DNA of 64,000 nt from Deltaproteobacteria bacterium (GCA_024275235.1 JAJRZN010000012.1:5279-69278); one strand, 5' to 3'; shown: positions 6,644-28,510, counted from the stretch's first letter. Numbers and translations are program-made. Notes: generated by a model from the sequence alone, not told the origin.

Positions 6644-6732
6644 ATTTGGTAACTATTCAACAGCCCCTCATTTAGGCCCGCTCCGGCCTCGCCCTGCCAT
6701 GTTTTTTACACCAGGGCCATAATAAAAACAAT

Positions 6733-11310: not shown

Positions 11311-11912
11311 TATTTATTTTGCAGATCAGAGAGATGACAGAGATCGTTCCAGTTAATAATTACCCGGTTTTCATGTTCATACCCCAAAATACTTAAAGAG
11401 GCTGTACCAAGCATTAACAACCTGGCGGCATTGGGCGGCAAACCAAGCCAGCGGGCCGCAATCACCCGCAGCATATGGGCATGAGCAAAGATTAAAGAAT
11501 CGCCGTCAACAGCCGCCACTCTCGCAATAACAATATCGGCCCGCTCTGCCACCTGCGCAAGTGTTTCTCCACCAGGGGGGTCGCCGCTCCAAATCGTCCA
11601 GCATGGCTGCTCGCTGCGGATATCCCGCGTAGTTCGCCCCTCATAGAGCCCATAATCCCATTCCTGTAAATCATCGGTAAATTCAGCCCGCTCTCCATAG
11701 CCCGCAAGCCGGCAGGTTTCGACAGCACGTTGGAGAGGGCTTGAAAGAACCATGCTGAACGAATGAGCGGCCAGCCTGACGGCCAAGGCTTCAGCCTGCA
11801 TAATTCCCCTGTTTGTGAGAGGTATATCACTTCTCCCGGTATGCCGCCCCATTACGGCCCACTCTGTCTCACCGTGACGCACCAGCCATATTTTCTGTTT
11901 AGTGTTAATCAT
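11310..11912 (-). CDS. histidine phosphatase family protein (phosphoglycerate-mutase-like)
   Basis: It has the RHGETEW catalytic motif 10 residues after Met at 11912 (MINTKQKIWLVRHGETEW). The longer ORF reaching 11990 reads through a CRISPR-like repeat and is not credible. Confidence 0.75.
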   Translation of the reverse strand: MINTKQKIWLVRHGETEWAVMGRHTGRSDIPLTNRGIMQAEALAVRLAAHSFSMVLSSPLQRAVETCRLAGYGERAEFTDDLQEWDYGLYEGRTTRDIRSEQPCWTIWSGDPPGGETLAQVAERADIVIARVAAVDGDSLIFAHAHMLRVIAARWLGLPPNAARLLMLGTASLSILGYEHENRVIINWNDLCHLSDLQNK

Positions 11913-11923
11913 AATTGTATTTT

Positions 11924-11955
11924 GTTTCAATTCGCGCCCCCGCATGGGGGGCAAA
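11924..11955 (-). repeat. orphan degenerate type I-C CRISPR repeat (psi-repeat)
   Basis: gtttcaattcgcgcccccgcatggggggcaaa compared with the array repeat gtttcaatccacgccccccgcatggggggcgac. The stem-loop and the ATTGAAAC end (minus-strand sense) are retained. It has the same polarity as the array, about 0.87 kb beyond it. Confidence 0.75.
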
Positions 11956-12022
11956 TCTCTCCGAAACTTGCCCCAATGTATGGAGAACATTTATACAGTT
12001 TTTGTATGTAACTTGCAAACAA

Positions 12023-12051
12023 CGGTTCATCCCCGCGGGTGTAGGGAACAT
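12023..12051 (-). repeat. isolated type I-E-like CRISPR repeat (29 nt)
   Basis: cggttcatccccgcgggtgtagggaacat. In minus-strand sense it ends ...CGGGGATGAACCG, close to the E. coli K-12 I-E repeat end ...CGGGGATAAACCG. It has a CCCCGC/N4/G-rich quasi-palindrome. Confidence 0.6.
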
Positions 12052-12108
12052 ATCGACAAGGGTTGGGATCATGCGCCGGGGGCCTCAGTAACAAAGGAGG
12101 TCAATAAG

Positions 12109-12657
12109 ATGGCGGCCAAGACCCAACAATGGGACTATACCATTGCCAAGGCATATATGCGGAGTGTACCGACTGGGCGGCGTGACGCCTTTGCCAAATC
12201 CTACCAGTCGCTACCTTCTGTTGCCGATGATATACGACGCTACGCCAGGCGGGCACTTGATAACAAAACCGCCGCCGGGATGCCGCCCTACAACAAGACC
12301 ATGGGGCTGCTCACCGGCAAGGACGCGGCCAGGGTTAAGGAGCTGACCGGCCGGGATGTGGGGTTATATGACTACGCACTCGATCCCAGCAGTATTGGAC
12401 ATATCAGGAGGCAGCACGGCGAAGCCGCCGGGGAGCTTGCCAGGGGCCAGCGCTTAGTGACCGCATCTGACTACTCGGCATTGCCGGGGATATTGAACGC
12501 CCCGGACTTAGAGGAATACGGCGTCTTGTCGGATGTCGGCCATCCGGTGGTGAGATATAAAAAGAAGATTGACGGGGAGTTATATACCACCGTTTTTGAA
12601 ATACGAAAAAAGAGAAGAATGCTGGTCTTGCAGAGTCTGTGGATAAAACGGCCCTGA
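12109..12657 (+). CDS. free-standing nuclease-toxin-like protein (PBECR-type Barnase/EndoU/RelE-like RNase fold suspected)
   Basis: AAGGAGG lies 8 nt upstream of the ATG. It has 182 codons. The motif pattern LDPSSIGHIRRQHG...VTASDYSALPGILNAPD...VVRYKKKIDGELYTTVFEIRKKRRMLVLQSLWIK resembles PBECR domains of phage/ICE polyvalent proteins. This assignment is from memory and has not been searched. Confidence 0.5.
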   Translation: MAAKTQQWDYTIAKAYMRSVPTGRRDAFAKSYQSLPSVADDIRRYARRALDNKTAAGMPPYNKTMGLLTGKDAARVKELTGRDVGLYDYALDPSSIGHIRRQHGEAAGELARGQRLVTASDYSALPGILNAPDLEEYGVLSDVGHPVVRYKKKIDGELYTTVFEIRKKRRMLVLQSLWIKRP

Positions 12658-12801: not shown

Positions 12802-15038
12802 TTACTGACACCCCCGCATAGGGGGCAACCATTGCAGACAGCGGAACAGGTAAAATGCAGTATGTTTCAATCCACGCCCCCCGCATGGGGGGCGACGTAC
12901 GAGCAACGGTGCTGCCGGCATGATGGGTCGTTTCAATCCACGCCCCCCGCATGGGGGGCGACTAATCCTATCGTTTTTTGCCGTCCGCCCTGCCAGTTTC
13001 AATCCACGCCCCCCGCATGGGGGGCGACGGCTGCAGTCCGACATCGAGCATTTTAAAGACAGTTTCAATCCACGCCCCCCGCATGGGGGGCGACGACGGA
13101 GTTTCCCCGGAGACGGCTAAACTGTATGAGTTTCAATCCACGCCCCCCGCATGGGGGGCGACACTAAAGGTGATATAATATGTCCGCATATAAAGTAGTT
13201 TCAATCCACGCCCCCCGCATGGGGGGCGACGTATGACAACAATGTAGACATCTCCTGTATCCCGTTTCAATCCACGCCCCCCGCATGGGGGGCGACGAAT
13301 AACCCCCAAGATGATGGACGACAAGATTAGTGTTTCAATCCACGCCCCCCGCATGGGGGGCGACATCCAAACTCAGTCGGCTTGGCACTATCATACCATG
13401 TTTCAATCCACGCCCCCCGCATGGGGGGCGACCAGGGTTAAGTTGGTTTTTGTCACCAATTAAAATGTTTCAATCCACGCCCCCCGCATGGGGGGCGACC
13501 TAATTGTGGCGGGGTGGTAGAGGAGACCGATGATGTTTCAATCCACGCCCCCCGCATGGGGGGCGACAACTGTAAATATTCTCGTTGTCGATCAAACAAA
13601 ATGTTTCAATCCACGCCCCCCGCATGGGGGGCGACTGCGGTATGTTTTGTTTTGCGTCATGCCAATTTTGTTTCAATCCACGCCCCCCGCATGGGGGGCG
13701 ACTTGGTTGACAAAATAGGTGATCCTGATAGCATCGTTTCAATCCACGCCCCCCGCATGGGGGGCGACGGTGATCTATTTTAATTTAGAGGTAACTGGTT
13801 ATGTTTCAATCCACGCCCCCCGCATGGGGGGCGACAGGCGTGATAACCTTGGCCTCTCTGCTATGTTTGTTTCAATCCACGCCCCCCGCATGGGGGGCGA
13901 CGGCACGGCGGGCTGGTTATCTCAAACGTTGTACGGTTTCAATCCACGCCCCCCGCATGGGGGGCGACTGAGTAAAAAAAATGGTTGGGTGCCGATAGAT
14001 AAGTTTCAATCCACGCCCCCCGCATGGGGGGCGACTTCCCGCCGATATTTATCATACCAGCAGGGAGATTGTTTCAATCCACGCCCCCCGCATGGGGGGC
14101 GACCGTGGTTTTCTTGTTAATGCCATATTTTTCTCCTGTTTCAATCCACGCCCCCCGCATGGGGGGCGACTGTATGCGCTGGGAGCAGGTGCGGGGATGT
14201 GCTGTTTCAATCCACGCCCCCCGCATGGGGGGCGACTATATGTCACCAGGGGATCTGGTAGCAGCTATATGTTTCAATCCACGCCCCCCGCATGGGGGGC
14301 GACCAAAAGCCCCCAGGTCGGCTGCGGTTTTTGAGTGTTTCAATCCACGCCCCCCGCATGGGGGGCGACTGATCCGGCTAAATACGTGCCGGTTGAGACA
14401 TTTGTTTCAATCCACGCCCCCCGCATGGGGGGCGACGCAACGAGCTGATCTATGGCGTTGACGACAGGAAGTTTCAATCCACGCCCCCCGCATGGGGGGC
14501 GACGAAATAGGCCGTCTGCTCGGCAAAGGGGAGCTTGTTTCAATCCACGCCCCCCGCATGGGGGGCGACTCTTTCCTTGTGGGCAGGCGGCCCACTGAAT
14601 TCGTTTCAATCCACGCCCCCCGCATGGGGGGCGACAACGGAGCGAATGTCGGTTCGCGGTGTGCGAACCTGTTTCAATCCACGCCCCCCGCATGGGGGGC
14701 GACACTCAAAGAAATTAGCGTTGAGGGTAAAGTAAAAGGTTTCAATCCACGCCCCCCGCATGGGGGGCGACATGATGTGGAGCTGCTTTTTGCTGTTGTT
14801 GCTGTTTCAATCCACGCCCCCCGCATGGGGGGCGACCGCAGTAGCTTTGATTTGCACAGTGGCGGCAAATGTTTCAATCCACGCCCCCCGCATGGGGGGC
14901 GACCTCGGTAACATATGTTGGGATTGACACCGGCGGGTTTCAATCCACGCCCCCCGCATGGGGGGCGACGTTGCCGAGACAGTTACTGCCCCGGCGTTTG
15001 TTGTCGTTTCAATCCACGCCCCCCGCATGGGGGGCGAC
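12797..15038 (-). CRISPR. type I-C CRISPR array: 33 identical 33-nt repeats plus 1 degenerate terminal repeat, 33 spacers of 32-36 nt
   Basis: The repeat on the plus strand is gtttcaatccacgccccccgcatggggggcgac. In transcribed sense it is GTCGCCCCCCATGCGGGGGGCGTGGATTGAAAC (8-bp GC stem, 4-nt loop, ATTGAAAC tail typical of I-C). The first perfect repeat is 12864-12896 and the last is 15006-15038. Period is 65-69 nt. The degenerate terminal repeat is 12797-12829. cas2 lies on the 15-kb side, so that side is leader-proximal. Confidence 0.97.
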
Positions 15039-15458: not shown

Positions 15459-15749
15459 CTATATCAACAATAACCCTTCCTGCTCCACCCCTCCTTTTGC
15501 CCCCACATGCTCCACCCGCCGCTGCCAGTTTGAGCCGAGAAAATAAAAACGCAGGCTATCGGTTTTTTGATTAATTTCGTCCACCAGTTTTTGCCGCATA
15601 ACCGCCCACTGAGCTGGATCAACAATGCACTCAAAGACAGAGAATTGCACCCTTTGGCCATAATCCTTACAGGTCTTGGCAACTCTGCGTAACCGGCGTC
15701 TGCCGGCCTTATCCATTGTGGAAACATCATAGCTCACCAACACAAACAT
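15459..15749 (-). CDS. cas2: CRISPR-associated endoribonuclease Cas2
   Basis: 96 aa. MFVLVSYDVS...RVQFSVFEC is the typical Cas2 ferredoxin-fold signature. It is adjacent to cas1 and the array. Confidence 0.95.
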   Translation of the reverse strand: MFVLVSYDVSTMDKAGRRRLRRVAKTCKDYGQRVQFSVFECIVDPAQWAVMRQKLVDEINQKTDSLRFYFLGSNWQRRVEHVGAKGGVEQEGLLLI

Positions 15750-15758
15750 AACTCCCTC

Positions 15759-16790
15759 CTATTGCCAGCAGAAAACTGGATAACCGTCAATATCGCCCCG
15801 AATATACCTGGCCAGCAACAAGGCTTGAGTATGAAACAAGAGGCCGACGGGCATCTTCTCCCGTAAAAACGGATGGGTGATTATATCCTGCTTCCTTTTC
15901 TGGTAGGCCACAAGCAGCGTCTTGCGGGTATCGTCGCTCATAATAACCGCCCCGCCCGCCGCCTTCTTAAAACCCTTGCGGTTAACCTGCCCCAGGTTAA
16001 TCAACGATAAGACCAGGCGGTCAGCAACATAGGGGCGGAACTCCTCCATCATGTCAAGTGCCAGACTTGGCCGCCCCGGCCGATCACGGTGCAGAAAGCC
16101 CACCGCCGGATCGAGGCCGACACATTCAAGGGCTGAACGTATATCGTGCATCAACAACATATAGGTGAAAGACAAGAGACTGTTCACCAGATCCAGCGGT
16201 GGACGCCGACTCCGTTCATGAAAGCTGAAATCATCCTTCTGGGCAACAATGAGATGATCAAACACCCTGAAATAAACCTGAGCCGCCTCACCCTCAAATC
16301 CCCGCATCTTATCAAGGGGGATGTCTATTTTAACGTGCATGAGAATGGACGAAATACGATCCGCCGCCGCCTTCACCGCATCGCCGTCCACCTTATCAAG
16401 ATGATCCCGTAATACCCGCCGTAACACCTTGCGGCAGTTGGAAACTTTGCCGATAATAACCGGCCTTGCCATGTGTGCTGACTGCCGCAAATCGTCCGCC
16501 CAGCGATATTGTTCCCGACGCAGCAAAACATTACCGGAAACCGGCCCCTGAACCCTGGCCAGAAAACGACCGTGTTCGGTGAGAAAACTGACGGTGACAT
16601 CCCGCTCGGCGCAAAATCCCATGAGGAATGGACTCATGGATACCTGTCCAAAACAAACAATACCATCCAGGGTGTGGACAGGTAGCTGCAGGCGGGTCTT
16701 TTTATCGACCCTAACCACCACAGTTTCACCTTCTTTGGCCAGATATGCGCCCTGAGTTGTCACAAAAAGGGTATTAAGATGTTTTTTCAT
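15759..16790 (-). CDS. cas1: CRISPR-associated endonuclease Cas1 (I-C type)
   Basis: 343 aa. It has the Cas1 pattern (LNTLFVTTQGAYL..., ...NSLLSFTYMLL..., ...DMMEEFRP...). Its start overlaps the cas4 stop (ATGA). Confidence 0.95.
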   Translation of the reverse strand: MKKHLNTLFVTTQGAYLAKEGETVVVRVDKKTRLQLPVHTLDGIVCFGQVSMSPFLMGFCAERDVTVSFLTEHGRFLARVQGPVSGNVLLRREQYRWADDLRQSAHMARPVIIGKVSNCRKVLRRVLRDHLDKVDGDAVKAAADRISSILMHVKIDIPLDKMRGFEGEAAQVYFRVFDHLIVAQKDDFSFHERSRRPPLDLVNSLLSFTYMLLMHDIRSALECVGLDPAVGFLHRDRPGRPSLALDMMEEFRPYVADRLVLSLINLGQVNRKGFKKAAGGAVIMSDDTRKTLLVAYQKRKQDIITHPFLREKMPVGLLFHTQALLLARYIRGDIDGYPVFCWQ

Positions 16791-17425
16791 AATGCCGCGG
16801 CCCTATTGAGATATTGTTCAACCCGCCGTTTTTTCTCCAGAGTTCTGGGCAGACAGATGTCCTTGAATGAGCAGGTATCACACTTCTTTGAATAGACCGG
16901 CGCAGGGGTCACGGCATTGTCAAAGAGCCGGTGCAGACGCAGAGCCGTATCCTCTGTCTGCCGCCGCAGTTCTCCGGTGAACTCCACCTTCTGCCGCCGC
17001 CGTTTTTTACCGTAGAACAACGCCCCTTGGGGAATGATAAGATCAAGCGTTTCTTCAAGACAGAGGGCCTGGGCGCAAAGCTGCACCTTGTCACAGTTAT
17101 CCTTTTTAGGCCGCCCCCGTTTATGCTCCACCGGAAAAGGAAGCCAGCGGGGATTACCCTCAGGCCGGCGGTGAAATTCAACCGCATCCGCCTTACCGAT
17201 AAGCCCAAGCCGCAGAGAGCGAAGGGGCAAGGCAAATTCAACCCGAATATCACCGTGCGACTCGCCACCGCTTCTATCTACCCGTTCGTGCATAATTCGC
17301 CCCTGGGCCGTAAAAAGATTTTCCACCCAAAGCTGTTCAATATGAATTAAGGCACATTGCCGTTCACAAAAGAGAAGATGCTGAAGCGCCGACAGGGGCA
17401 GAAGATCGTCTTCGTTATACATCAT
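16787..17425 (-). CDS. cas4: CRISPR-associated exonuclease Cas4
   Basis: 212 aa. It has an N-terminal Cys (LLFCERQCAL) plus a C-terminal CDTCSFKDIC cluster (four-Cys Fe-S pattern of Cas4) and a RecB-like nuclease core. Confidence 0.9.
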   Translation of the reverse strand: MMYNEDDLLPLSALQHLLFCERQCALIHIEQLWVENLFTAQGRIMHERVDRSGGESHGDIRVEFALPLRSLRLGLIGKADAVEFHRRPEGNPRWLPFPVEHKRGRPKKDNCDKVQLCAQALCLEETLDLIIPQGALFYGKKRRRQKVEFTGELRRQTEDTALRLHRLFDNAVTPAPVYSKKCDTCSFKDICLPRTLEKKRRVEQYLNRAAAL

Positions 17426-18408
17426 TCATCGGTGTTGGTGATTAAGTTGGCAATCAGCCGTATCAAAATATCCTTCTGGGCCGGATCGCTGGCCGCCGTG
17501 AGCAGAGTCAGGGCGACCAGGGCATTATCGGAAAATCGGCGTTCATCCAACCGGCCGTTTTTTTCAAGAAACAGGAGAAAGAGGAATGTAGCGATCCGCT
17601 TGTTCCCATCGCTGAAGGGGTGATCCTTGATGACAAAATAGAGAAGGTTCGCCGCCTTTTCCGCAACTCCGGGATAAAGATCATGGCCGCCGAAGGTCTG
17701 CTGAACAGCGCCAAGAATGCCCGCCAGACCTTCACCCCGCTCCTGGCCGAAAAGCTCGGTCGCTTAGCCCTTGCCAGACAGCTCTTTTTTCAATGAGGTG
17801 ATGGCGGATCGTGCTTCGGAAAGCTCAATAAGTACCTTGCTCGCTGCAACAGCCTTAGGAAGGGCAAGCGCGTCCTCATCATACTGCAAAAGAAGGTTCC
17901 AGGTTTTGGCATACCGGCTCACGATACGCAGAACGGCCCGGCCCTCGTCATTCAACAATTCATTGCTATCCAGGGTATTGGCAAGAAGCGACAGCACCTG
18001 CCGCATTTCCTCAGTTCCTTTTTCGGCAAGGCGTTTCTGATTGACGGTGAAGCCGCGCACGAGATGATCTTTCAACACGGAGGTGGCCCAGATGCGGAAC
18101 TGGGTGCCGCGTTTGGAATTTACCCTGTATCCGACAGAGATAATGGCATCCAAATTATAAAAATTTGTTCGATATGTTTTGCCGTCAGAGGCAGTATGTG
18201 CAAATTTTGCACATACTGCCTCTTTATCCAACTCGCCCGTTCGAAAAATATTATTAATATGCTTCGTCACAACACTTCGCTCCGTCCTGAAGACAGAGGC
18301 AATCTGTTTTTGTGTAAGCCATACAGTTTCATCTTTCAACTGCACGTCAATGGCCGAACTTCCGTCCTCAGACTGGTATAAAACAATTTCACCAAGATGA
18401 GCGTTCAT
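17422..18408 (-). pseudogene. RhuM-family protein with C-terminal Fic/Doc-like domain, interrupted by an in-frame TAA at 17764-17766
   Basis: The N-terminal part (from Met at 18408, MNAHLGEIVLYQSEDG...YRVNSKRGTQFRIWAT) is RhuM-like. The same frame continues after the TAA as ATELFGQERGEGL...DHPFSDGNKRIATFLF (HxFxDGNKR Doc/Fic motif) to a TGA at 17422 that overlaps the cas4 ATG. Confidence 0.75.
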
Positions 18409-18592
18409 ATTGAGATTCCTGTTAATTTCACGACCTTTTAAGTCGCTTGACACTTTCAGGCTCGGTCAGATAGTTTTCAGAACTTACCACTTTCCTGTTA
18501 GTTTCAAGCTCCAGATTAGTTCTGGCATCACCGGCAATTTTGCCACCCTTTCGGGCTGCTGTTTTATTTTAATCAAAGTCATTGGCATCCTT

Positions 18593-19252
18593 TTATCTGG
18601 CGATCTCAGTGGTGGCAGCCTCTCCCAGCATGGAGAAAATCGACTCAAGATCGGTCATGTGATCGCGCAGATTATGTCGTTTCAGGCCCTTAACTTTCTT
18701 ATATTCAGAGGGGGTGATGCCGAAGGTTGCTTTGGAAATCTCAGCGGTGAGAATAGCGTATTCAGGGTCTTCTTTTATGCCGCGTTTCTGCCATTCATCT
18801 GTCAACTCATCCCGAACGACAATACCACGCATCCATTTCTCTATCCAGGCATCGGAATAGCCCTTGGCACGGTAAATGGCTTTGGTGCGCTTGCTGGCCA
18901 GTTCCGGGTCTTCAATTTCCTGTACCCGCTCATAACCGACCTTGGCCAGCCAGCGTTTGAAGGGCTCTGCTTTGGGAGATGGAATGGATTGGATGATGCG
19001 GAAAAGGCCTTCGGTGTTGGCGCATAACATCCGCTGCACCCCGCCGGTAGTCTCAATGGGAAGGGTATGTACAATTTGTACCCACCCTTTAGCCAACTCC
19101 GGATCACGGCGTTTCATACGTTGGATATATTGCTTGGGGTCTTTCGAATCAATGAGTGCAAGCACCACATCCTGCACAACAAACCACCATTCCTCATTGT
19201 GCAGTATCCGACGGATTCCCTTGTTTTTAAAAACTACCAGTTTATTTTCCAT
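18593..19252 (-). CDS. Bro-N domain protein (phage antirepressor-like), copy 1
   Basis: MENKLVVFKNKGIRRILHNEEWWFVVQDVVLAL is a Bro-N signature. GGGGAGGA precedes the ATG at 19252. The start overlaps the fic stop by 11 nt. It is a paralogue of 27533-28372 (shared SPKAEPFKRWLAKVGYER core). Confidence 0.8.
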   Translation of the reverse strand: MENKLVVFKNKGIRRILHNEEWWFVVQDVVLALIDSKDPKQYIQRMKRRDPELAKGWVQIVHTLPIETTGGVQRMLCANTEGLFRIIQSIPSPKAEPFKRWLAKVGYERVQEIEDPELASKRTKAIYRAKGYSDAWIEKWMRGIVVRDELTDEWQKRGIKEDPEYAILTAEISKATFGITPSEYKKVKGLKRHNLRDHMTDLESIFSMLGEAATTEIAR

Positions 19253-20072
19253 GATCGTCCTCCCCACCCCGTTGCCGCTGTTTCTCCTGCGCCGCTTCCA
19301 CTAACGACAATGATTCCTGCCAGGATTTTTGGCAAAAGGCAATGAAGGGCTTTAAACTCTCCAAATACGACAAAAGTTCATCACCGCCCCGGACTTGCCC
19401 CGCTTCAAAATGATATGCCGAAAGCAGATCAATATATTCCTTGCGCTGTTCCCTTGGAATGATTATTGGCGGAAGTCCTGCCTGTAAAACCGGAAGATTG
19501 GCCACCAAACGAGCCATACGGCCATTGCCGTCAAAAAAAGGATGAATACGGACGAAGGTGACATGCAGACAGGCATATGCGGTTACTGCTTGTTCTGTAT
19601 CCTCAGAACGAACCTGCCGACTCACATCATGATATAGATCAAACCAACGCTCCATGAGGGCTGGAACGTCATCGGGGGGAGCATAATCAAAAATAATCTG
19701 TTTGCCAGCCACAACCCCGGTGGTGGAATTTGGTTCTCTCTTCCAGGCCCCGACAGGCTTATAGACATCAACAACCACCTCAGTCTGTACCGCCGCATGA
19801 AGGGCAAAGAGTTCCGACTCCCCCAACTCTTTACCCTCCTGGAGCAGCTGATAAAGAAGATCAATGGCCTTGGCATGCCCCACCACCTCCTGATGATCTT
19901 TGAGGGGTTTACCGGATATGGTCAGCCCCTCCTCAAGGACAAAGGCAGTCTCGCCAAGGGTGAGGGTATTGCCCTCTATGGCCGTGGAACTATGAGTCCA
20001 CAGGTTGCGGAGCTGGATGAGCAGGGTTTGGCGGAGATCGGGGTCTATGTTGGCAAGAAACGATAGGTGCAT
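19242..20072 (-). CDS. Fic family protein (class II, with N-terminal inhibitory motif)
   Basis: It has the canonical active-site motif HPFFDGNGRMAR and an N-terminal STAIEG matching the [ST]xxxE[GN] auto-inhibition helix. The start was chosen at Met 20072 (GAGGA upstream), 10 nt after the cas7 stop. Confidence 0.85.
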   Translation of the reverse strand: MHLSFLANIDPDLRQTLLIQLRNLWTHSSTAIEGNTLTLGETAFVLEEGLTISGKPLKDHQEVVGHAKAIDLLYQLLQEGKELGESELFALHAAVQTEVVVDVYKPVGAWKREPNSTTGVVAGKQIIFDYAPPDDVPALMERWFDLYHDVSRQVRSEDTEQAVTAYACLHVTFVRIHPFFDGNGRMARLVANLPVLQAGLPPIIIPREQRKEYIDLLSAYHFEAGQVRGGDELLSYLESLKPFIAFCQKSWQESLSLVEAAQEKQRQRGGEDDHGK

Positions 20073-20082
20073 ATAAAAATCC

Positions 20083-20934
20083 TCAAAAACCATCAATGAT
20101 TTCGGGTGGATCAATTTCTTTAACTGACTCAATAGAAATATTAACCCCGGAACTTTCCTCTATAATTTTTAAGCTTCGATGAACCTTAGCTGATGAAACT
20201 TTACCGTTGGGACATTTATGATCCCACCAGACAACCTTAAGAACCTCCATGCTTCCTTCTGGTCGTGCAGAGGATGCGTCATTTTCAAAAAGTTTCGGTA
20301 GAATGTCTTTTACGATTTTGGCATCGTCATCACTAAAACCTGTTTTAGAGGCAAGTTGCGGGTTCATGCTTCCAAAAAACGCATATGTCCCGTGATCCAC
20401 ACGATGCTTAATTCACATCGTATCAGAACTTTTTTTCTTTCCGTCACCCTCACCACTAACACTTTTGGTTATTTGTGTACTGGTTATATCCACCGGAGAT
20501 ATAGAAAACGCTGTATGAACTGAAACCGGCCCTCTAATTCCAATTGAGACTCCTGCGCCTTTTTTGTCGCCGGCATAGGCAAAGACTTGGCCAAAGGCTC
20601 TGACATCAAACCATTTTTCACAAACCGCATCAGCAATTTCTCTTGATGTTTTAGTATTATCAAATATTTTTTTCCCGCTAATATCTGTAGCCTTTTCAGC
20701 ACGTTCACGCAGACTATTGCATTCATCCAATTTATTGTCATCAGATTGTACAAAAATATCTTTACCCTTTTCCATAAGACGGTTCCGAATTTTCCGTTTG
20801 ATACATACATCAGAGACTTCTCCAATCCTGTCATAATTTGTCCGAGGGCGGTTTCCATTCAGGGGGTCACCATTTGGATTGGCATTTTTTACGGTGAAGA
20901 TTACAGCAAAATCAATTTTTTTCGTTAAGCTCAT
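20083..20934 (-). pseudogene. cas7: Cas7 (Csd2, type I-C backbone subunit) interrupted by an in-frame TGA at 20413-20415
   Basis: The start is at Met 20934 with AAGGAGA upstream. The N-terminal part reads FAVIFTVKNANPNGDP (Csd2 signature). The junction reads ...KKSSDTM*IKHRVDHGTYAFFGSMNPQLASKTGFSDDDA...FENDASSARPEGSMEV, which is continuous Csd2 family sequence in one frame. Confidence 0.85.
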
Positions 20935-21316
20935 CGTTTGTCTCCTTATTTGCATTATTTTCAGGATTAAAAGCTAACCGTTGGCAGTGAAAACCTAAAA
21001 GGAATTCCCCGGATAATGAACTGTCGGACGAATAACCTTCCACGTCGGTGAATAAACCATGAATCAAATCCATTTCCTTTTCATACTTATTGCTTCGACT
21101 CAATCTTGCCTTGTATGGGACAAGGGCTAATTCAATAGTTTTCCAGGTGCTACTTGGGCGTTCAGCAAACCTTTGCATCAATTTTGTTGCGCTTGTTTGT
21201 CTATTTTTACTGTTTTCACTTGCGACATAAAGCGCAGTTGATTCCAAACAATCCGCAACAGCCAACAAACGCCCGTACAAATAGTCCCTGGTCTTTCGTT
21301 CTCGTTCTAGTCCCAT
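20912..21316 (-). CDS. cas11: candidate internally translated small subunit Cas11c (in frame within the 3' end of cas8c)
   Basis: An in-frame ATG at 21314-21316 is preceded by AGGGAGGA at 7-8 nt (plus strand tcctccct, 21324-21331). It would give 134 aa (MGLERERKTRDYLYGRLLAVAD...). Type I-C systems are known to make Cas11 from an internal start in cas8c. Confidence 0.55.
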   Translation of the reverse strand: MGLERERKTRDYLYGRLLAVADCLESTALYVASENSKNRQTSATKLMQRFAERPSSTWKTIELALVPYKARLSRSNKYEKEMDLIHGLFTDVEGYSSDSSLSGEFLLGFHCQRLAFNPENNANKETNDELNEKN

Positions 21317-23275
21317 CGTATAATCCTCCCTTTCTTTGAAATAATATTTGTAAAGTCCACAAGCAATCCCCAATGCCTTCTGCCAGGCCCAATCTGGAAG
21401 ACTGTATCTCTGAACCGCCTTTCTGATACAAGATTCAACTATATCCCAAGCGAGAGGCACTCCATCAATTACGCACGGTATCAAACGTTCAACCGTTGTT
21501 TTTTGGACATTGTCATCGACCTTGATGAGATCATCATCTTTGGTTCCATAAGCGGCTTGGGCAATATCTTTTGGGGATGGAGCACCATAAAATTCCTTGT
21601 CTTTTGAAAAATGCTGAAGCCAAGCACACCCCTTATGCCAGGTTTCTATTCTTTTTAAAAAATCAGAACCAGTCAGTTCCCGGTAGTAGGTCAACACCAT
21701 CCGGCCCGGAGTCGCAGAATCGACTCCCATGACAATAATTTCATCTGCACTGCCCAGCTTTACGCTATACCCTGAAAGATACTGAGAAAGGCGAACACCA
21801 AAATCTTGCGCAGTAAATCCGTTCTGTATTCTTGCTCCCGAGGAGGCTTCATTTATCGTTGAATCATCGTTTAACAAATCATCGCTGTCCACAAGCGGGT
21901 CGGGTATATCCATGCCGGATACCGCCCATGCAACAATAGCCAATTTGGGCTCATTTTTAACAAAAAACACTTTACCTTGTCTTCCAAGCAGCCAACGTAA
22001 TGCACTGTGCGCCTTTTGAGCAATAATGACATCAACACCACAAACTTGATATTCATCTGTGAACCGACCCCTAAATGTAAATCCAGAAGTGTCATTTGAT
22101 GAAATTAGCTTTGCTCCATCATTGGCGGATCGAATCATCCGTGGATATTGTTCCGGCTGAAACTTCTGACATCCTGACTTCGATTCTCCCGAAACAAAAC
22201 AAAATGTTTCATACTTTCTGGTGCTAAGATAGTAGTCAATCCAACTTTGCCAAACAGACTTATCAAATTGAAGATCAGAAGATCTCTCCCCTGGGATCTC
22301 AACACACCAACGAATAAATACGTCTATTTGGGTCTGACCTTGCCCTAATGCTCTAAATATATCCGGCTTTTCTTCTCTTCTCCCATGCCATTTTTTAAGG
22401 AGGGTTCCTGTCTCATCATCAATATAGAGGACTTTTTTTCTTACCAGGTCAGTAATTAATTTTCCTTTACGAATGTATTTATAAACTGCTTTTATTTTTT
22501 CGTTTGCAAAACCTGACTCAACCCACTCTTCTAACACTTCTAAGTATCCAGCATAGCCAGCTTCAATTGAAGGGTAAATAAATTCCAAAATAGCGGCTTT
22601 CAAATGAACGTTTTCTCTGTCATGAAAATTGTCAGCATTATCAACTCTTTTTAGCAAATATATATATTGTTTTTTCTCTTTTCTTTTCTTTTCAGTTAAC
22701 AGATCATCCTCTTTTCGAATCAATGAATTTTTAGGGTTCAACAAATTATAGTAAATTTGATCAGTTTGGCGTCGTCTAATATCCTCCTCCATGATCGAAG
22801 CAAACAACTTCTTTTGTCTACTGAAATTATTTTCTGATTCAAGTATTCTTTGATTTTCTCTTGAAATTCTGGCTAAACATCCTTGTTTATCCTTACTGCC
22901 ATCATGCAATAAATTATTAAATGATTTTTCATTCCCTTTGAATTTAACTAACAATGAATGAAAGTAGTGACCTTTAGTCCCACCATATTTCTCATAATCA
23001 GCAGCAATATACTGTAGCTGCTCGGCTAAAGGATGAGGAGCGCAACCACTTGTTCTCCCCGCAGAGCTTTCCGTTGCAGGCAAAATAGTTTTCGCATCAT
23101 TTTCAGAGATAACAGAAGCTCTCTTGAATACACCTTGCCCATCAACCACGACTTCTACATGTGCACGTTTTTTTGTTGTGTGAAATATTGGCAATAAAGG
23201 AATTTTATCATTTGGATCGCCGATTTTGTCAGTATTACTTTCATACGTTTGGTACAGCTTCTCAATCCAGCTCAT
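20912..23275 (-). CDS. cas8c: Cas8c (Csd1) large subunit, unusually long
   Basis: The MSWIEKLYQTYE N-terminus is typical of Csd1. It lies between cas5 and cas7. It is about 787 aa from Met 23275. It overlaps cas5 and cas7 at both ends. Confidence 0.85.
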   Translation of the reverse strand: MSWIEKLYQTYESNTDKIGDPNDKIPLLPIFHTTKKRAHVEVVVDGQGVFKRASVISENDAKTILPATESSAGRTSGCAPHPLAEQLQYIAADYEKYGGTKGHYFHSLLVKFKGNEKSFNNLLHDGSKDKQGCLARISRENQRILESENNFSRQKKLFASIMEEDIRRRQTDQIYYNLLNPKNSLIRKEDDLLTEKKRKEKKQYIYLLKRVDNADNFHDRENVHLKAAILEFIYPSIEAGYAGYLEVLEEWVESGFANEKIKAVYKYIRKGKLITDLVRKKVLYIDDETGTLLKKWHGRREEKPDIFRALGQGQTQIDVFIRWCVEIPGERSSDLQFDKSVWQSWIDYYLSTRKYETFCFVSGESKSGCQKFQPEQYPRMIRSANDGAKLISSNDTSGFTFRGRFTDEYQVCGVDVIIAQKAHSALRWLLGRQGKVFFVKNEPKLAIVAWAVSGMDIPDPLVDSDDLLNDDSTINEASSGARIQNGFTAQDFGVRLSQYLSGYSVKLGSADEIIVMGVDSATPGRMVLTYYRELTGSDFLKRIETWHKGCAWLQHFSKDKEFYGAPSPKDIAQAAYGTKDDDLIKVDDNVQKTTVERLIPCVIDGVPLAWDIVESCIRKAVQRYSLPDWAWQKALGIACGLYKYYFKEREDYTMGLERERKTRDYLYGRLLAVADCLESTALYVASENSKNRQTSATKLMQRFAERPSSTWKTIELALVPYKARLSRSNKYEKEMDLIHGLFTDVEGYSSDSSLSGEFLLGFHCQRLAFNPENNANKETNDELNEKN

Positions 23276-24041
23276 TTTGTAGCGCCTCCTCATTGATTCC
23301 TATAGATTTGGGAGGATTGGGTATCATATCACGCACAAATTTCCGCATGGTACATTCCTCTGGACGTATAAACCGAATGACCCCTTTTTTCATAACTGGT
23401 TTCCAGAAACGACTATGGAGACGATATTCCCCATTCTCATCTGGCTTACCATATTCAGTTGTTTTTCCCGTTTCATCGGGATAATCAAATCCATGAAACA
23501 TGATGCCGTAATCCAGACGCTCAATATCATCATACGCTCCATCTCCCTGACCGAAATCACACGGCTCGACATATCCCTGGCATTCTCGCGCCCCCAAAAA
23601 GATATCCTGCCTCCCACCTCTTTCTATCATCCGTTGAGCAATCTGAAAATGTTTACCATCAATCCGGTCGCTAGCCATATCTTCCCTAAACTTATTCCAT
23701 TTGAAATGGGCTTTAACCTGATATTCAACATCTGCAAGATAGGTGTACATTGCCAAGGTGTTGAAAGATTCTTGCTTTTTTGTTGGATTACGCCGTGAAG
23801 GATAAATACCTCCGTAATTAAGTGGTTTGACACTCTTGGCTTCGGTTCTGATAGGTTTCATGATTCTAACCGCATCAATAATCCAGATTAAGGTAGGCTT
23901 CCAGTACACCGATTTAAGAATTCCTTTTAATACCTCGTAAGTAGGAATGTGGTAGGAACATTTTTCACCACCTATTTTTGTTAATGGATCAGTAAAGAGA
24001 GCGTGTCGCCCACTTATTTTAAATTCAACGTTGTTTCTCAC
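23262..24041 (-). CDS. cas5: Cas5d (type I-C pre-crRNA processing subunit)
   Basis: 259 aa. MRNNVEFKISGRHALFTDPLTKIGGEKCSYHIPTYEVLKGILKSVYWKP is the Cas5d N-terminal signature. Confidence 0.9.
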   Translation of the reverse strand: MRNNVEFKISGRHALFTDPLTKIGGEKCSYHIPTYEVLKGILKSVYWKPTLIWIIDAVRIMKPIRTEAKSVKPLNYGGIYPSRRNPTKKQESFNTLAMYTYLADVEYQVKAHFKWNKFREDMASDRIDGKHFQIAQRMIERGGRQDIFLGARECQGYVEPCDFGQGDGAYDDIERLDYGIMFHGFDYPDETGKTTEYGKPDENGEYRLHSRFWKPVMKKGVIRFIRPEECTMRKFVRDMIPNPPKSIGINEEALQNELD

Positions 24042-24051
24042 TCGGACCTCC

Positions 24052-26523
24052 TTATGCGTTTAAAAATTCCATAGGTGAAACTGGCTCTTCACTCACGCCA
24101 AACTCTCTACTATAGTGCTGTTGGTCTAAGTGCAATATTCCGTAGTCGCTTTGCGTCTGAAATAACACCCCTTTTCTTATTAAAACCTCCTTCAGATAAG
24201 GAAAAATATTCACAGAATACTGTTGGGCAGCTTCCAGAAGCTTTTTTTCTTCCTTCAAGGATAATTTTGATGATAGTTTCATAATGATTGATTTCGCTTC
24301 ACCATTAAAGGGCACCATAATTCCTTCGGTCGGCGCATCAATAACTCGGAAATTTTTTCCTGCGGTCTTAAATGACTGCCATAAATAATAAGGTGGCTTT
24401 GCCTTATCGTTAGATCTGCTATATGCCGCAAACGATTCAAAGTTTGTAGACAATAAAGATAGCATGTCATCATCACGGCCAATTTCATTCCGAGATAGCC
24501 GATAACTCATTTCATGGGATCGCTGAAAAAAATAATACTTATAAAATCGTTTCATGGCGTTGGGGCCAATTAGGTCATAATCAAACTCTTCTGGCGTTTT
24601 TCTAAACTCATCAAGAATGCGTAGCGTAACCTTTTGGGCTATCTTCATCTCCCGCAGGTTGGCAAGATTCTCTGCTTTAAGGTTAACAATCTGAACCACA
24701 CCCAACCCATTTTTCTGTAACCCACTTCGGTTACAACGTCCCGCCGCCTGAGCAATCGAATCCAGTCCGGCCAGGCATCGAATAACCGCCCCAAAGTCAG
24801 CGTCAACACCAGCCTCAATAAGCTGTGTGCTTATACAGATAACGGGTTGAGGGTTGACTGGATCGAGATCATCAAGCACCCTGCCCAATGTATCTTTGCG
24901 ATGTTTCGGACACATGGATGTACTGAGGTGAAATACATTTTTGAACAGCCTCTTGCAAATTACATACAGATTTTTTGCTGTAGCCTTGGTGTTGGCAACA
25001 ACCAAAACGCTTCCCTTGGCCTGAAGAAGATCCATGACACGCTCCGCCAGCTCATCTTCCATCCAACCTCCATCTTTTAAGCAATCCTGGACGTTAACCC
25101 GTTTTAACACCTTATAGAGTGGGGGATAATCAACTATCTCAAGTTCACTAGAATATGGGACCGCCCCCTTAGAAGCATCAACACTATGCAAAAGCGGCTG
25201 AGTTGCTGTACAGAAAACGACTGTGGAAGAACAAATTCCCGTCAACAAATTGATAGCATTGTTAAAAAGATGGACTGTCTTAATAGGCAATGTTTGAATT
25301 TCATCAAAAATAATGACTGATTTAGCCAACTGGTGCATACGACGTACGCTACGTGTTCCACCACTAAACAATGTGTCCAGAAATTGAACTGATGTGGTAA
25401 ATACAATTGGCGCATCCCAATTTTCTGAAAGAATGCGATTACGCTGAGTGTCTTTATCTGGAACCAAGTTTGAATGGTGTTCCAAGACTATTTCATGGGA
25501 AACAGCAGCGAAAATTTTGGCCACCTCAGAGGCATTCTGGTCAATAATTGAAGTATAGGGAATAACATAAATTATTCGGTCAAGTTTGTGTTTCATTGCA
25601 TGATGGAGAGCAAAACGAAGGCTGGCAAATGTTTTGCCACCGCCAGTTGGCACCGTCAGATAATAAAGTCCTTGTTTGCCACTTGCCCTCTGCATACACG
25701 ACAACGAAACTTCGCACCTTTTCTGGTCAATCATATTTTTAATTCTAAATTTTTTGGATTCAAAACAATCGATCAATTTAAGCCAAGATGGATATTGCCC
25801 AAGGTAGCGCAATTTCGCATCTTCCGGATTGTCAAAATCGGCAGTACTTATCCGGTCAGCATCAATCAAACAACTGAAAAGAAAACGAGTCAGCAACCCT
25901 TTTGCGAAGAGCCGTATTTGTCCGTCAAAGAGCCCATGAATTTGGCTAATAACTGCTTTTAGCTGCTCATTTTTTTCATTTGAATTGATGATATTGTTAA
26001 TACTGTCTGCAATAGATTTATCGGTTTTTTCTTTTACTTCAAAATAGTGAGTTAACGCAGCATCTTTTGTCAAACGGATAGTTAATTTATCCTCACCAGA
26101 TATATCAAGCAAATCAATTAATCCAGAATGGTGTGAGACTCCACATAATGCGATAATTTCTTTTAATATTCTGCCAATCTTGATTTCTTTACTTAGGGAT
26201 TCACAAACCCACTGAGCTCCAGCGGTAGAATGGTCTATTTGCCCCCTGAGCGGCTCTGGATTCATATAACCCCGGTCTCCTTTACAAAGTAACCCTACCG
26301 CAGATTTGATATAGCGTTGAAATACAAAACTATATTTCCCTACGTCGTGCAATAGACCTAACAGTGTTCCTATTTGTCTCAAGCCTATTTTGCTCGCAAA
26401 ATCTCCCGAAAAATTAGCAGCCTCATTGAGATGACTTTCCAGCGAATGAATTAGCCACTCGCCAGATACTTCATCTTGACGAGCGTGAGCAATTACTGAT
26501 GAACCCATTCCTCCTCCATTCAT
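24052..26523 (-). CDS. cas3: Cas3 HD nuclease / DEAD-box helicase
   Basis: 823 aa. It has an HD domain (LLGLLHDVGKY, ...SHHSG), a helicase Walker A (LTVPTGGGKTF), a DEIQ box (IIFDEIQT) and a C-terminal helicase domain. Confidence 0.92.
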   Translation of the reverse strand: MNGGGMGSSVIAHARQDEVSGEWLIHSLESHLNEAANFSGDFASKIGLRQIGTLLGLLHDVGKYSFVFQRYIKSAVGLLCKGDRGYMNPEPLRGQIDHSTAGAQWVCESLSKEIKIGRILKEIIALCGVSHHSGLIDLLDISGEDKLTIRLTKDAALTHYFEVKEKTDKSIADSINNIINSNEKNEQLKAVISQIHGLFDGQIRLFAKGLLTRFLFSCLIDADRISTADFDNPEDAKLRYLGQYPSWLKLIDCFESKKFRIKNMIDQKRCEVSLSCMQRASGKQGLYYLTVPTGGGKTFASLRFALHHAMKHKLDRIIYVIPYTSIIDQNASEVAKIFAAVSHEIVLEHHSNLVPDKDTQRNRILSENWDAPIVFTTSVQFLDTLFSGGTRSVRRMHQLAKSVIIFDEIQTLPIKTVHLFNNAINLLTGICSSTVVFCTATQPLLHSVDASKGAVPYSSELEIVDYPPLYKVLKRVNVQDCLKDGGWMEDELAERVMDLLQAKGSVLVVANTKATAKNLYVICKRLFKNVFHLSTSMCPKHRKDTLGRVLDDLDPVNPQPVICISTQLIEAGVDADFGAVIRCLAGLDSIAQAAGRCNRSGLQKNGLGVVQIVNLKAENLANLREMKIAQKVTLRILDEFRKTPEEFDYDLIGPNAMKRFYKYYFFQRSHEMSYRLSRNEIGRDDDMLSLLSTNFESFAAYSRSNDKAKPPYYLWQSFKTAGKNFRVIDAPTEGIMVPFNGEAKSIIMKLSSKLSLKEEKKLLEAAQQYSVNIFPYLKEVLIRKGVLFQTQSDYGILHLDQQHYSREFGVSEEPVSPMEFLNA

Positions 26524-26657
26524 ATTTTCTATATGATCTTTTTCTACTTTTATTTTCCCAAAAACTTAGTATTAATCTACCCAAATCACTACTAAACTCA
26601 TCGTCTTTACAAATAATTAATTTTTAGCAGATAATGCACGTATAATAACCGGATCTT

Positions 26658-27472
26658 TTATCCATCGTTGCCCACAATCTCCCGAAACAACTCATTCAGC
26701 GGTTCCACCGACGCAGATATCTTTTTTAAGCCAGAGGCTGTTTCGGCAAACCGAAACAACTCCCTTTCTATAAAATCATTCAGCACCGGCAACCTGGACT
26801 CAAGATCAAGTTCACAGCCCTTTTGCTTTCTCTCCAGCAGCGAACAAACCGCCTCATACACCATTGTTTCATCAGAGGATATTTTATTTAGTAATACGGC
26901 AAAAGGCACCGGTACAGCAATACGACTACGATCGTATGCGATGGACTTTTTTATCTCCAGCCAACGCAGGGCCAATAAGGGACGAAGGACGTACAGATAT
27001 TTTTTGATTCGTACGGTTTCTCCCCGTAAATAATCCCGGTAATTCCTTTGCGCCATGTGCAGGTAGTGATAAAAACATGAGCGGGGAGAATAATACTGCG
27101 GCAGCAAATTGCACGGTTTCTCCCTGAACCCGGCACAATCAATATAAACTATCGGCGAGTGAAGCCATTCTATCAGTGGAGAATTTGTTTTTTGAAATAA
27201 ATTTAACGCCTTCCGTATGTCCCAACCGCTGATATCAAGGTCGTTTTCTATCTCCGGTTCAATGACATCCCGTTTTCTTTCCAGATCGATGCTGAGGTAC
27301 CATTCAAGGAGCGGACATAGATGAAACGGATATCCCAGTCACTGTCCCTTAAGGCAAAGCCCCAGGCCCTGCTTCCGGATTCACAGGCATAAAGAATGGT
27401 GATGCTCTCTGTGTCTTCCAACTTTTCTAACCGTGAAACGATCAATCCATGCTGGTCTTTATTGTTCATCAT
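26658..27472 (-). pseudogene. nucleotidyltransferase (RlaP / PF10127-like, DNA polymerase beta superfamily), single frameshift
   Basis: The N-terminal ORF reads ...[27 protein letters not shown] and then leaves the family frame. The -1-shifted frame continues [38 protein letters not shown]...KKYLYVLRPLLALRWLE to the stop at 26658. Confidence 0.65.
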
Positions 27473-27484
27473 TCCCCCTTGCCC

Positions 27485-27547
27485 TACACCCTAACACACC
27501 CCCTGGGTCATATAGTGACCCACCCCCCAAATTTATTTCATTTTTTT
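27485..27547. repeat. 63-bp direct repeat, copy A, containing palindrome TGGGTCA-N5-TGACCCA
   Basis: tacaccctaacacaccccctgggtcatatagtgacccaccccccaaatttatttcattttttt has 3 mismatches to copy B. It overlaps the 3' end and stop of bro-N copy 2. Confidence 0.8.
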
Positions 27548-28372: not shown

Positions 28373-28447
28373 AATAGTCCTTTTCCATATGTTAAAACCA
28401 ACGCATACGATCGTTGTCGTACCACTATGCCGCAGCATACCTTCTCA

Positions 28448-28510
28448 TACACCCTAACACACCCCCAGGGTCATATAGTGACCCACCCCCTAAATTTATT
28501 TTATTTTTTT
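28448..28510. repeat. 63-bp direct repeat, copy B
   Basis: tacaccctaacacacccccagggtcatatagtgacccaccccctaaatttattttattttttt overlaps the stop of the WYL gene and lies about 75-140 nt upstream of bro-N copy 2. Confidence 0.8.

Follow-up and report, generated by a model that had tools for sequence, protein, structure and literature searches.

In a 64,000-nucleotide stretch of the genome of a Deltaproteobacteria bacterium (GCA_024275235.1 JAJRZN010000012.1:5279-69278, hereafter the window), three genes are located between cas7 and cas4 of a type I-C CRISPR-Cas operon. They encode a Fic protein, a Bro-N protein and a RhuM-N~Doc fusion. We interpret the site, with a probability of about one half, as a recurrent cargo bay in which defence genes of the growth-arrest type are accommodated where the effector genes end and the adaptation genes begin; on this interpretation the bay is co-transcribed with cas and has partly decayed in this genome. 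The best-supported form of this interpretation is a bay found in the type I cas operons of Desulfobacterota and their relatives, which holds three independent single-gene defence candidates in the present case.

The arrangement recurs well beyond this genome, in dozens of genomes of sulfate reducers. A genome set comprising one genome per GTDB species yielded 80 Fic loci at 57–72% identity, and linkage to cas genes was scored by tblastn with the I-C Cas proteins of the window and the I-E Cas proteins of a metagenomic locus (L001; loci are numbered with the prefix L). In about 41 of the 80 species genomes, the Fic gene is part of a cas operon and co-oriented with it, and it separates the last effector gene, which may be cas7, cas3 or cas6e, from the first adaptation gene. 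At identities of at least 60%, it occupies this junction in 38 of the 51 assessable loci of the genome set, and the arrangement recurs in metagenomes. Four layouts were found, namely cas7-Fic-cas4 in canonical I-C operons, the same order in a divergent, Csd1-positive I-C lineage, cas3-Fic-cas4 where cas3 comes last (L008, L020), and cas6e-Fic-cas1e in I-E operons (L063, L079). The arrangement is also present in cultured strains, including Desulfosarcina cetonica JCM 12296, Desulfobacter vibrioformis DSM 8776, D. curvatus DSM 3379 and strain NaphS2. Among the metagenomic loci, L001 encodes a 71%-identical Fic between cas6e and cas1 of its I-E operon, and in L003-L005 a 70%-identical Fic lies about 6 kb downstream of cas4-cas1-cas2. 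The objection, raised in the preliminary description of this DNA, that the arrangement might be unique to one strain fails decisively, as the families of the trio are encountered again at this junction in numerous other loci of types I-C and I-E.

Linkage to cas genes depends on the Fic clade. In the genome set, 23 of the 35 loci with at least 65% identity are linked (23 of the 29 with enough flanking sequence), as are 15 of 32 at 60–65% and 3 of 13 at 55–60%, and in the metagenome set a single locus out of 46 is linked below 55%. With both sets pooled, the proportions are 48/87 at 60% identity or more and 5/73 below that value (Fisher p = 2.6e-11). The stand-alone Fic homologs have no recurrent partner system, and their neighbours are housekeeping or assorted defence genes. 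Seven contigs (L012, L015, L036, L046, L054, L056, L071) end 0–360 nt past Fic, possibly through assembly breaks at a repeated Fic/adaptation module; the cas-linked count may therefore be too low.

The position of Fic at the junction is tight on its upstream side, with gaps of 16–27 nt in canonical I-C loci when measured between alignment ends. Downstream, 19 of 36 loci have a gap no larger than 110 nt, and the other 17 hold extra cargo before cas4 or cas1. Bro-N homologs are found beside Fic in ten loci (L008, L024, L051, L053, L063, L065, L075, L095, L097, L103). Close Bro-N homologs are also CRISPR-adjacent in the absence of this Fic in all five cases sampled, three of which are at the junction; the arrangements include cas6e-Bro-cas1e (L172), cas7-Bro-cas4 (L174-176), cas7-HEAT-Bro-cas4 (L177), Bro directly upstream of cas3 (L180), and a WYL-Bro pair adjoining a cas6 remnant in Geotalea uraniireducens Rf4 (L178). 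The pairing of a WYL gene with Bro-N in the last of these is shared with the window, where it lies upstream of the cas operon (27533-29451). RhuM-Doc is encoded immediately upstream of cas4 in L011, L038, L086 and L087/88; the Cas4, Cas1 and Cas2 proteins of L086-L088 are 85–96% identical to those of the window. An I-E operon, L274, combines these families in the order cas6e-Bro-KilA-N-Bro-RhuM-Doc-cas1e. In other species, further genes of the defence-island kind, such as those for an AAA_21 ATPase and a 23S_rRNA_IVP four-helix protein, as well as unknown genes, are found between Fic and cas4, and L020 has an insertion sequence element at the junction. Several cargo genes have been damaged independently: the RhuM-Doc gene of L087 (GCA_006243245.1, 2-520) lacks about 40 aa immediately ahead of the HPF motif through an in-frame deletion, and RhuM-N or Bro-N remnants occur in L008, L053/L097, L063 and L065. 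The comparison of these loci points to a probable high turnover of the cargo genes, in contrast to the stable Fic. Literature searches for Fic, Bro-N or RhuM with type I cas operons returned nothing relevant, within an incomplete body of searched literature.

The gene order and the families of the trio, as given in the preliminary description, were confirmed by Pfam and NCBIfam searches, and all seven cas genes match NCBIfam or Pfam families, which together with the array of 33 repeats assigns the system to type I-C. Coordinates refer to the window throughout, and the cas operon, the cargo trio and the array are all on the minus strand (Table 1). The junctions previously described as operon-like are indeed so: the fic ATG, preceded by a GAGGA ribosome-binding site, follows the cas7 stop by 10 nt, bro-N begins with an ATG at 19252 and so shares 11 nt with the end of fic, stop included, and the TGA of the rhuM/Doc gene overlaps the cas4 ATG (ATGA). 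The apparent gap of 184 nt between bro-N and rhuM is really 19 nt, because the bro-N frame extends through premature stops. The resulting spacings of 10, -11, 19 and -4 nt leave no space for signals of the trio's own, so that the trio is presumably read from the cas transcript. A consensus scan for promoters and terminators that might isolate the trio gave no signal above chance, with 24 promoter-like sites versus 21.1 expected from shuffled sequence and 10 terminator-like sites versus 12.6. A search of Rfam matched no known RNA family.

The Fic protein of the window carries the active site HPFFDGNGRMAR at residues 177–188, which conforms to the PF02661 core motif HxFx(D/E)GNGRxxR, and its Pfam score is 63.7 bits versus a cut-off of 24. 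The motif STAIEGN at residues 29–35 is located N-terminal to the Fic core on the same chain, as expected for a class II enzyme, in which inhibition is intramolecular and is exerted via an [S/T]xxxE[G/N] motif (Goepfert 2013, PMC3667792). HPFxDGNGR and STA[IL]EGN are almost invariant among 82 Fic homologs; the inhibitory motif is present in 81 of the 82, residues S29, E33 and G34 are invariant in an alignment of 28 sequences, and Fic is intact in about 95% of the 82 loci. The family is large and well conserved in Desulfobacterales. An AlphaFold2 (AF2) model with a mean predicted local distance difference test (pLDDT) score of 89.9 finds its best match in the Protein Data Bank in 3cuc/BT_2513, with a template modelling (TM) score of 0.77–0.81 over the full length, followed by FICD.

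Among the defence families in PADLOC, Fic matches the PDC-S04 model PDLC04840 at 1e-31 over positions 16-198 of 227. The SoFic model is matched at 4.6e-24, only over profile positions 56-247 of 361, and the TM score normalised to SoFic is 0.40–0.50. SoFic is reported to act in abortive infection through AMPylation, and its ~361–372 aa include a C-terminal domain needed for toxicity (PMC12249575); its reported AMPylation target is EF-Tu (bioRxiv 10.64898/2026.07.09.737422). The Fic of the window, at 276 aa, is not a SoFic member because this C-terminal domain is absent. Viral relatives of Fic, encoded on viral contigs, reach 31–38% identity at best. A phage origin of Fic was rejected on this basis, and hitch-hiking phage DNA is accordingly an unlikely reading as far as Fic is concerned.

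The other two cargo genes also belong to candidate defence families. Copy 1 of bro-N matches PDC-S13 at 2.3e-108 over 2-273 of 286, even though its reading frame contains two in-frame TAA codons. Its homologs, of 273–287 aa and 77–86% identity, form a very conserved family that is named in various sources as BRO-N domain protein, prophage antirepressor or DNA-damage-inducible protein D. A second copy of bro-N in the window is 43% identical to the first. Viral relatives of Bro-N are 43–63% identical, and none adjoins cas genes. The rhuM-Doc product matches PDC-S23 at 1.5e-128 over 5-325 of 327, with an in-frame TAA separating its two Pfam domains. Its N-terminal domain also matches PDC-S05, a RhuM-type gene of which protected E. 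coli against T7, T5 and T4 (bioRxiv 10.1101/2024.09.26.614923). The C-terminal domain matches a Doc-like toxin family of PHROG and is related to DOC_P1 (TIGR01550) at 1.1e-08 and 35.2 bits, below the curated cut-off of 38.65; the neighbouring gene on the upstream side, 19 nt away, is bro-N and not a small antitoxin open reading frame, and the gene is thus not a Doc of the Phd-paired type. The AF2 model of a RhuM-Doc homolog (pLDDT 65.6) was too uncertain and was not used. The RhuM-N and Bro-N domains share a TA(A/S)DGK(K/T)Y motif and a palindrome described below, which suggests that they are homologous; a direct hhalign comparison of the two gave a probability of only 38%. We also observed a 518-aa protein from a metagenome-assembled genome at NCBI (P0267) with Bro-N, RhuM and Fic/DOC domains in one chain, and a weak match (1e-5) of PDLC04841, a PDC-S04 Fic model, to the Bro-N domain. 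Both hint at possible fusions of Bro-N and Fic/Doc modules.

Four in-frame stops, clustered within 2.65 kb and overlooked in the preliminary description, interrupt this part of the operon, each of which replaces a codon that is a sense codon in aligned homologs (Table 1). They affect three of the five genes at issue (cas7, bro-N and rhuM-Doc) and leave fic as the sole intact cargo gene. All four are changes to T at the first codon position (GGA to TGA, AAA to TAA, and GAA to TAA twice), and no reading frame is shifted. If its stops are ignored, bro-N has 274 codons, as in its homologs and the full-length PDC-S13 model, and it additionally carries an R-to-W change at the invariant KRMRG motif. 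In rhuM-Doc, the sole in-frame start after the TAA falls past the HPFSDGNKR motif. The three motifs reported earlier, HPFFDGNGR with STAIEGN and HPFSDGNKR, are all present. Of the two Fic/Doc-type active sites to which they were assigned, both are encoded but only that of Fic is expressible, the Doc domain being located behind a premature stop. The truncated products (219, 214 and 173 aa, the last from cas7) are found in a public protein collection on the same 70,392-bp NCBI contig, and the stops therefore belong to the deposited sequence; they may reflect real decay or sequence error. Use of code 25 (TGA = Gly) for the cas7 stop was rejected, since this is the sole in-frame TGA in the 6.4-kb effector cassette, and genome-wide pseudogenisation was rejected in view of the long intact open reading frames across the remaining window. 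Interference is probably inactive in this genome because cas7 is broken. Self-targeting as the cause of the loss of cas7 was considered and rejected, as none of the 32 spacers matches the window, the only sequence compared. The layer is partly decayed here, with Fic still in place along with the adaptation genes and a perfectly homogeneous array.

The preliminary description referred to the trio as inserted into the operon, which is misleading. The G+C content at third codon positions (GC3) is 0.31–0.37 in cas3-cas7 (20083-26523; overall GC 0.40–0.42), 0.51–0.62 in fic, bro-N, rhuM-Doc, cas4, cas1 and cas2 (0.55–0.58 for cas4-cas1-cas2), and 0.51–0.61 in the flanking chromosomal genes, with a break that sits exactly at the cas7|fic junction. 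As the composition of the trio is that of the adaptation module and of the host, the foreign block is the effector cassette and not the trio. The composition indicates that this cassette is probably a recent low-GC replacement ending precisely at the cas7|fic boundary. The low-GC block (20083-27200; GC ~0.40 in a locus of ~51–56%) may include a fragment of an RlaP nucleotidyltransferase gene. Mobile-element ends around the trio, which were likewise considered beforehand as evidence against an integral position, were not found by a scan of repeats and genes: flanking direct or inverted repeats are limited to short chance ones, and no transposase, integrase or recombinase gene is present. Repeats, recombinase genes and composition thus all fail to identify the trio as a mobile element or cassette.

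The evolutionary coupling of Fic with the two cas modules was analysed by Mantel tests on pairwise distance matrices. Fic distances correlate with those of Cas1 (r 0.35–0.37, p 0.001), Cas2 (r 0.41, p 0.0005) and Cas4 (r 0.36, p 0.002 in a shared set of 23 loci; r 0.23, p = 0.013 with all 33 pairs), and not significantly with those of Cas7 (r 0.14–0.17, p ~0.055) or Cas5 (r 0.13, p 0.12). For comparison, the correlation is 0.84 for Cas1 with Cas4 (p 0.0005) and 0.15 for Cas1 with Cas7 (p 0.07). Mean pairwise identity is 69% for Fic and 69% for Cas1. Fic thus shows a tendency, albeit a loose one, to stay with the adaptation module through repeated exchanges of the effector genes.

In the mechanism we propose, the biochemical steps are inferred from the protein families. 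Upon induction of the operon, Fic would be made along with Cascade/Cas3 and Cas4-Cas1-Cas2. Displacement of the inhibitory Glu-helix would then allow Fic to AMPylate an essential host factor, for which EF-Tu in the case of SoFic and GyrB/ParE in the case of the FicT toxins provide precedents, and the AMPylation would lead to a possibly reversible growth arrest. Such an arrest could stop phage replication and leave longer for interference and for the capture of spacers, the rationale being that spacer acquisition benefits from growth arrest. RhuM-N~Doc would constitute a second brake, of the Doc type, acting on translation via phosphorylation of EF-Tu, with its Bro-N-like N-terminal domain as a putative nucleic-acid binder or sensor. 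The notion of an abortive-infection or addiction layer advanced in the preliminary description is upheld in its first half only. Abortive infection is plausible because all three genes match PADLOC candidate defence families, whereas addiction is unlikely, given the internal inhibitory helix and the lack of a separate antitoxin gene.

Several observations weigh against a cargo bay of growth-arrest genes. The link is not obligate, since roughly a quarter to half of the members of the close Fic clade are encoded away from cas loci. The many linked loci may derive from few ancestral insertions, which would inflate the counts, and Fic and the adaptation genes show no more than a moderate co-phylogeny. 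A toxin role is not assured, because deAMPylation or regulation can be the main activity of class II Fic enzymes, and one test of the candidate family PDC-S04 in a native host gave no defence (bioRxiv 10.1101/2024.12.20.629700). With three partner genes disrupted by nonsense codons, any system-level function has probably been lost in this window.

One rival reading is a genuine CRISPR accessory factor. Fic, and perhaps the DinD-like Bro-N as well, could modify a Cas protein or a host factor for adaptation or interference, for example in topoisomerase or RecA/RecBCD-linked steps, and thereby tune spacer acquisition instead of acting as a toxin. The cargo is always 5' of the adaptation module, whichever effector gene is last, Fic covaries with the adaptation and not significantly with the effector proteins, and its rate of evolution is as low as that of Cas1, its catalytic and inhibitory motifs being invariant. 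In addition, the nearest structures, BT_2513 and FICD, belong to a regulatory, bifunctional class, and the label of DNA-damage-inducible protein D has been given to the Bro-N family. Nevertheless, many members of the clade stand alone in unrelated contexts, the same families are free-standing defence candidates that also occur inside type I restriction-modification (R-M) operons, and the correlation of Fic with the adaptation genes is far below that of Cas1 with Cas4 (0.37 vs 0.84). We regard an accessory factor as rather unlikely. Neutral hitch-hiking appears similarly improbable. It would make the boundary simply the one spot of the operon that tolerates insertion and module swapping, at which mobile defence genes pile up with no tie to CRISPR. 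The uncoupling of the adaptation and effector modules (Cas1 versus Cas7), the module swap at that boundary in the window, the differences in cargo content between species, and the frequent damage to cargo (in the window, by deletion in L087, and as remnants in L008, L053, L063 and L065) are all consistent with such a scenario. It does not readily account for the preservation of an intact Fic, whose motifs are invariant and whose conservation resembles that of Cas1, in different families and in both I-C and I-E systems, nor for the recurrence of the same three families in place of a random sample of genes, and intergenic DNA flanking the operon would be equally permissive, yet the genes lie within it.

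The least likely rival, which we consider very improbable, is an addiction or safeguard module that, like CreTA, would penalise loss or silencing of the cas operon. CRISPR-regulated toxin-antitoxin pairs of this kind are an established concept, and toxin-type Fic and Doc domains are embedded in the cas operon. However, the gaps of -11 to 19 nt hold no separate antitoxin gene or small open reading frame between the genes, no Rfam hit was obtained, and Fic has its own inhibitory helix. Moreover, cas7 is broken, Fic is intact and the host persists, and the loss of interference is therefore evidently tolerated.

A perfect DNA palindrome lies inside the rhuM-N coding region (Table 1). Folded as RNA, it has an energy of -32.4 kcal/mol (z = -7.7). 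Of 57 distinct RhuM-N genes of bacterial or viral-contig origin, 48 have a perfect inverted repeat with arms of at least 8 nt at this position, compared with about 3% of random windows. The repeats vary in sequence from gene to gene and covary strongly. In a 20-sequence alignment centred on the repeat and fitted to the structure, 92.5% of the cells pair and all 12 pairs change on both sides, with 60 cells changed on both sides versus 3 on one side only. G-U pairs are nearly absent, which together with the two-sided changes points to a dyad or hairpin at the DNA level and not to an RNA structure; no Rfam family corresponds to it. A similar palindrome is found at an analogous place in 12 of 28 DinD-like Bro-N genes, including copy 2 of bro-N in the window, where its arms are 14 nt long. 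Besides the window, the palindrome was observed at loci L008, L011, L028, L038, L072, L086, L169-171, L276 and L277-L356. The palindrome enters into a bolder and quite doubtful reading, in which Fic/Doc enzymes, paired with Bro-N/RhuM-N proteins, would have a dedicated docking site at the junction. These would act with the adaptation machinery, for example by an enzyme-imposed stasis that licenses spacer capture, and the palindrome would be a cis-acting element for them, whether a sensor, an operator or a site of recombination. If true, the genes would make up a new class of accessory genes to Cas in type I systems.

The remaining features of the locus are also collected in Table 1. The cas8c product is unusually long (793 aa vs 572–697 aa in related loci), and the Csd1 profile matches it only from residue 247 onwards, which is suggestive of an insertion or extension at the N terminus. 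Just past the trailer end of the array there is an open reading frame with a C-terminal PBECR3 domain (a Barnase/EndoU/colicin-like nuclease toxin). A RecB-like gene (1231 aa; UvrD helicase and PD-(D/E)XK) and a RecC gene (1145 aa) are located about 2.7 kb from the array; RecBCD is a source of substrates for naive adaptation.

Table 1. Features of the type I-C locus and its surroundings in the window.
Feature	Position	Strand	Description
RecB-like and RecC genes	2948-10170	-	
PBECR3-domain open reading frame	11902-12657	+	
CRISPR array	12864-15038	-	33 identical 33-nt I-C repeats, 32 spacers of 32-36 nt; leader between cas2 and array
cas2	15459-15749	-	intact
cas1	15759-16790	-	intact
cas4	16787-17425	-	NCBIfam Cas4 2e-36; intact
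rhuM-N~Doc fusion	17422-18408	-	328 codons; Pfam RhuM 2.9e-24 and Fic/DOC 6.5e-12; disrupted
Stop in rhuM-Doc (TAA)	17764-17766	-	Glu in homologs; upstream of Doc motif
Palindrome	18187-18223		perfect, 18-nt arms
bro-N copy 1 (reading frame)	18428-19252	-	274 codons; Pfam Bro-N 4.5e-14; disrupted by stops
Stop in bro-N copy 1 (TAA)	18569-18571	-	Glu in homologs
Stop in bro-N copy 1 (TAA)	18593-18595	-	Lys in homologs
fic	19242-20072	-	intact, 276 aa; Pfam Fic 2.9e-17
cas7 (Csd2)	20083-20955	-	NCBIfam Csd2 6.1e-95 across internal stop
Stop in cas7 (TGA)	20413-20415	-	Gly, invariant in 10 homologs
cas8c	20912-23293	-	NCBIfam Csd1 8.4e-83
cas5c	23262-24041	-	NCBIfam Cas5c 1.8e-70
cas3	24052-26523	-	part of low-GC effector cassette
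RlaP nucleotidyltransferase fragment	26658-27107		
bro-N copy 2	27533-28438	-	intact full-length paralog, upstream of cas3
WYL/WCX-domain regulator	28501-29451	-	Pfam WYL 1.7e-21, WCX 2.9e-16; upstream of bro-N copy 2 and cas operon

Type I CRISPR-Cas systems are usually seen as self-contained, with accessory growth-arrest effectors mainly in type III, and nested abortive-infection genes are known mainly from type I R-M systems. The repeated occurrence of a Fic subfamily, a DinD-like Bro-N and RhuM-Doc at one I-C/I-E junction points to a layered immunity that can be tested. The intact arrangement is present in cultured strains, in which clean mutants of the inhibitory Glu and the catalytic His are possible in principle. 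The locus in the window also supplies a natural case of an exchanged effector module, with this junction as the exact point of exchange, and the covarying DNA palindrome embedded in a widespread family of defence-island genes is a further yield of the analysis.

A comparison with known systems places the individual proteins in different contexts. With SoFic, the Fic of the window shares the fold, the HPFxDGNGR motif and the N-terminal inhibitory helix; it differs in its length (276 aa vs ~361–372 aa) and the lack of the C-terminal domain, is better matched by PDC-S04 and BT_2513, and is not followed by a small antitoxin such as AS1. The full-length fold match to BT_2513 (TM 0.77–0.81 to 3cuc) and to FICD/HYPE (E ~1e-10) extends to the inhibitory Glu motif, at a sequence identity of only ~30%, and FICD has TPR and membrane parts and targets BiP. 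RhuM-Doc resembles Doc of the phage P1 Phd-Doc pair in its HPFSDGNKR motif, with a Lys replacing the Gly of Fic. By contrast, the Doc domain of the window is fused to a RhuM-N domain of DNA-binding-like character, has no Phd antitoxin and is disrupted by a nonsense codon.

At the level of the locus, CreTA and the type III effectors of the Csm6/Card1 type likewise tie a growth-arrest activity to a CRISPR-Cas locus. They differ from the present case, in which the loci are of types I-C and I-E, with no cyclic-oligoadenylate signalling, no CARF/SAVED sensor and no CRISPR-repressed toxin RNA. In the literature searched, Fic/Doc enzymes have not been reported as CRISPR-linked effectors. A close parallel is offered by the abortive-infection genes nested in type I R-M operons, such as PrrC in the prr locus and RloC/rlo genes, where a stand-alone growth-arrest effector is also embedded, co-oriented and tightly spaced, in the operon of another immune system; EcoprrI restrains PrrC. 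A RhuM/Fic/DOC homolog with 50% identity is itself found in such a setting, between hsdS and hsdR on a Methylophaga plasmid (NZ_CP095734; order hsdM-hsdS-X-hsdR). Here, the host operon is instead a type I CRISPR-Cas operon, and the site is the boundary between effector and adaptation genes. By this analogy, the trio is a putative CRISPR counterpart of the abortive-infection genes nested in type I R-M operons.

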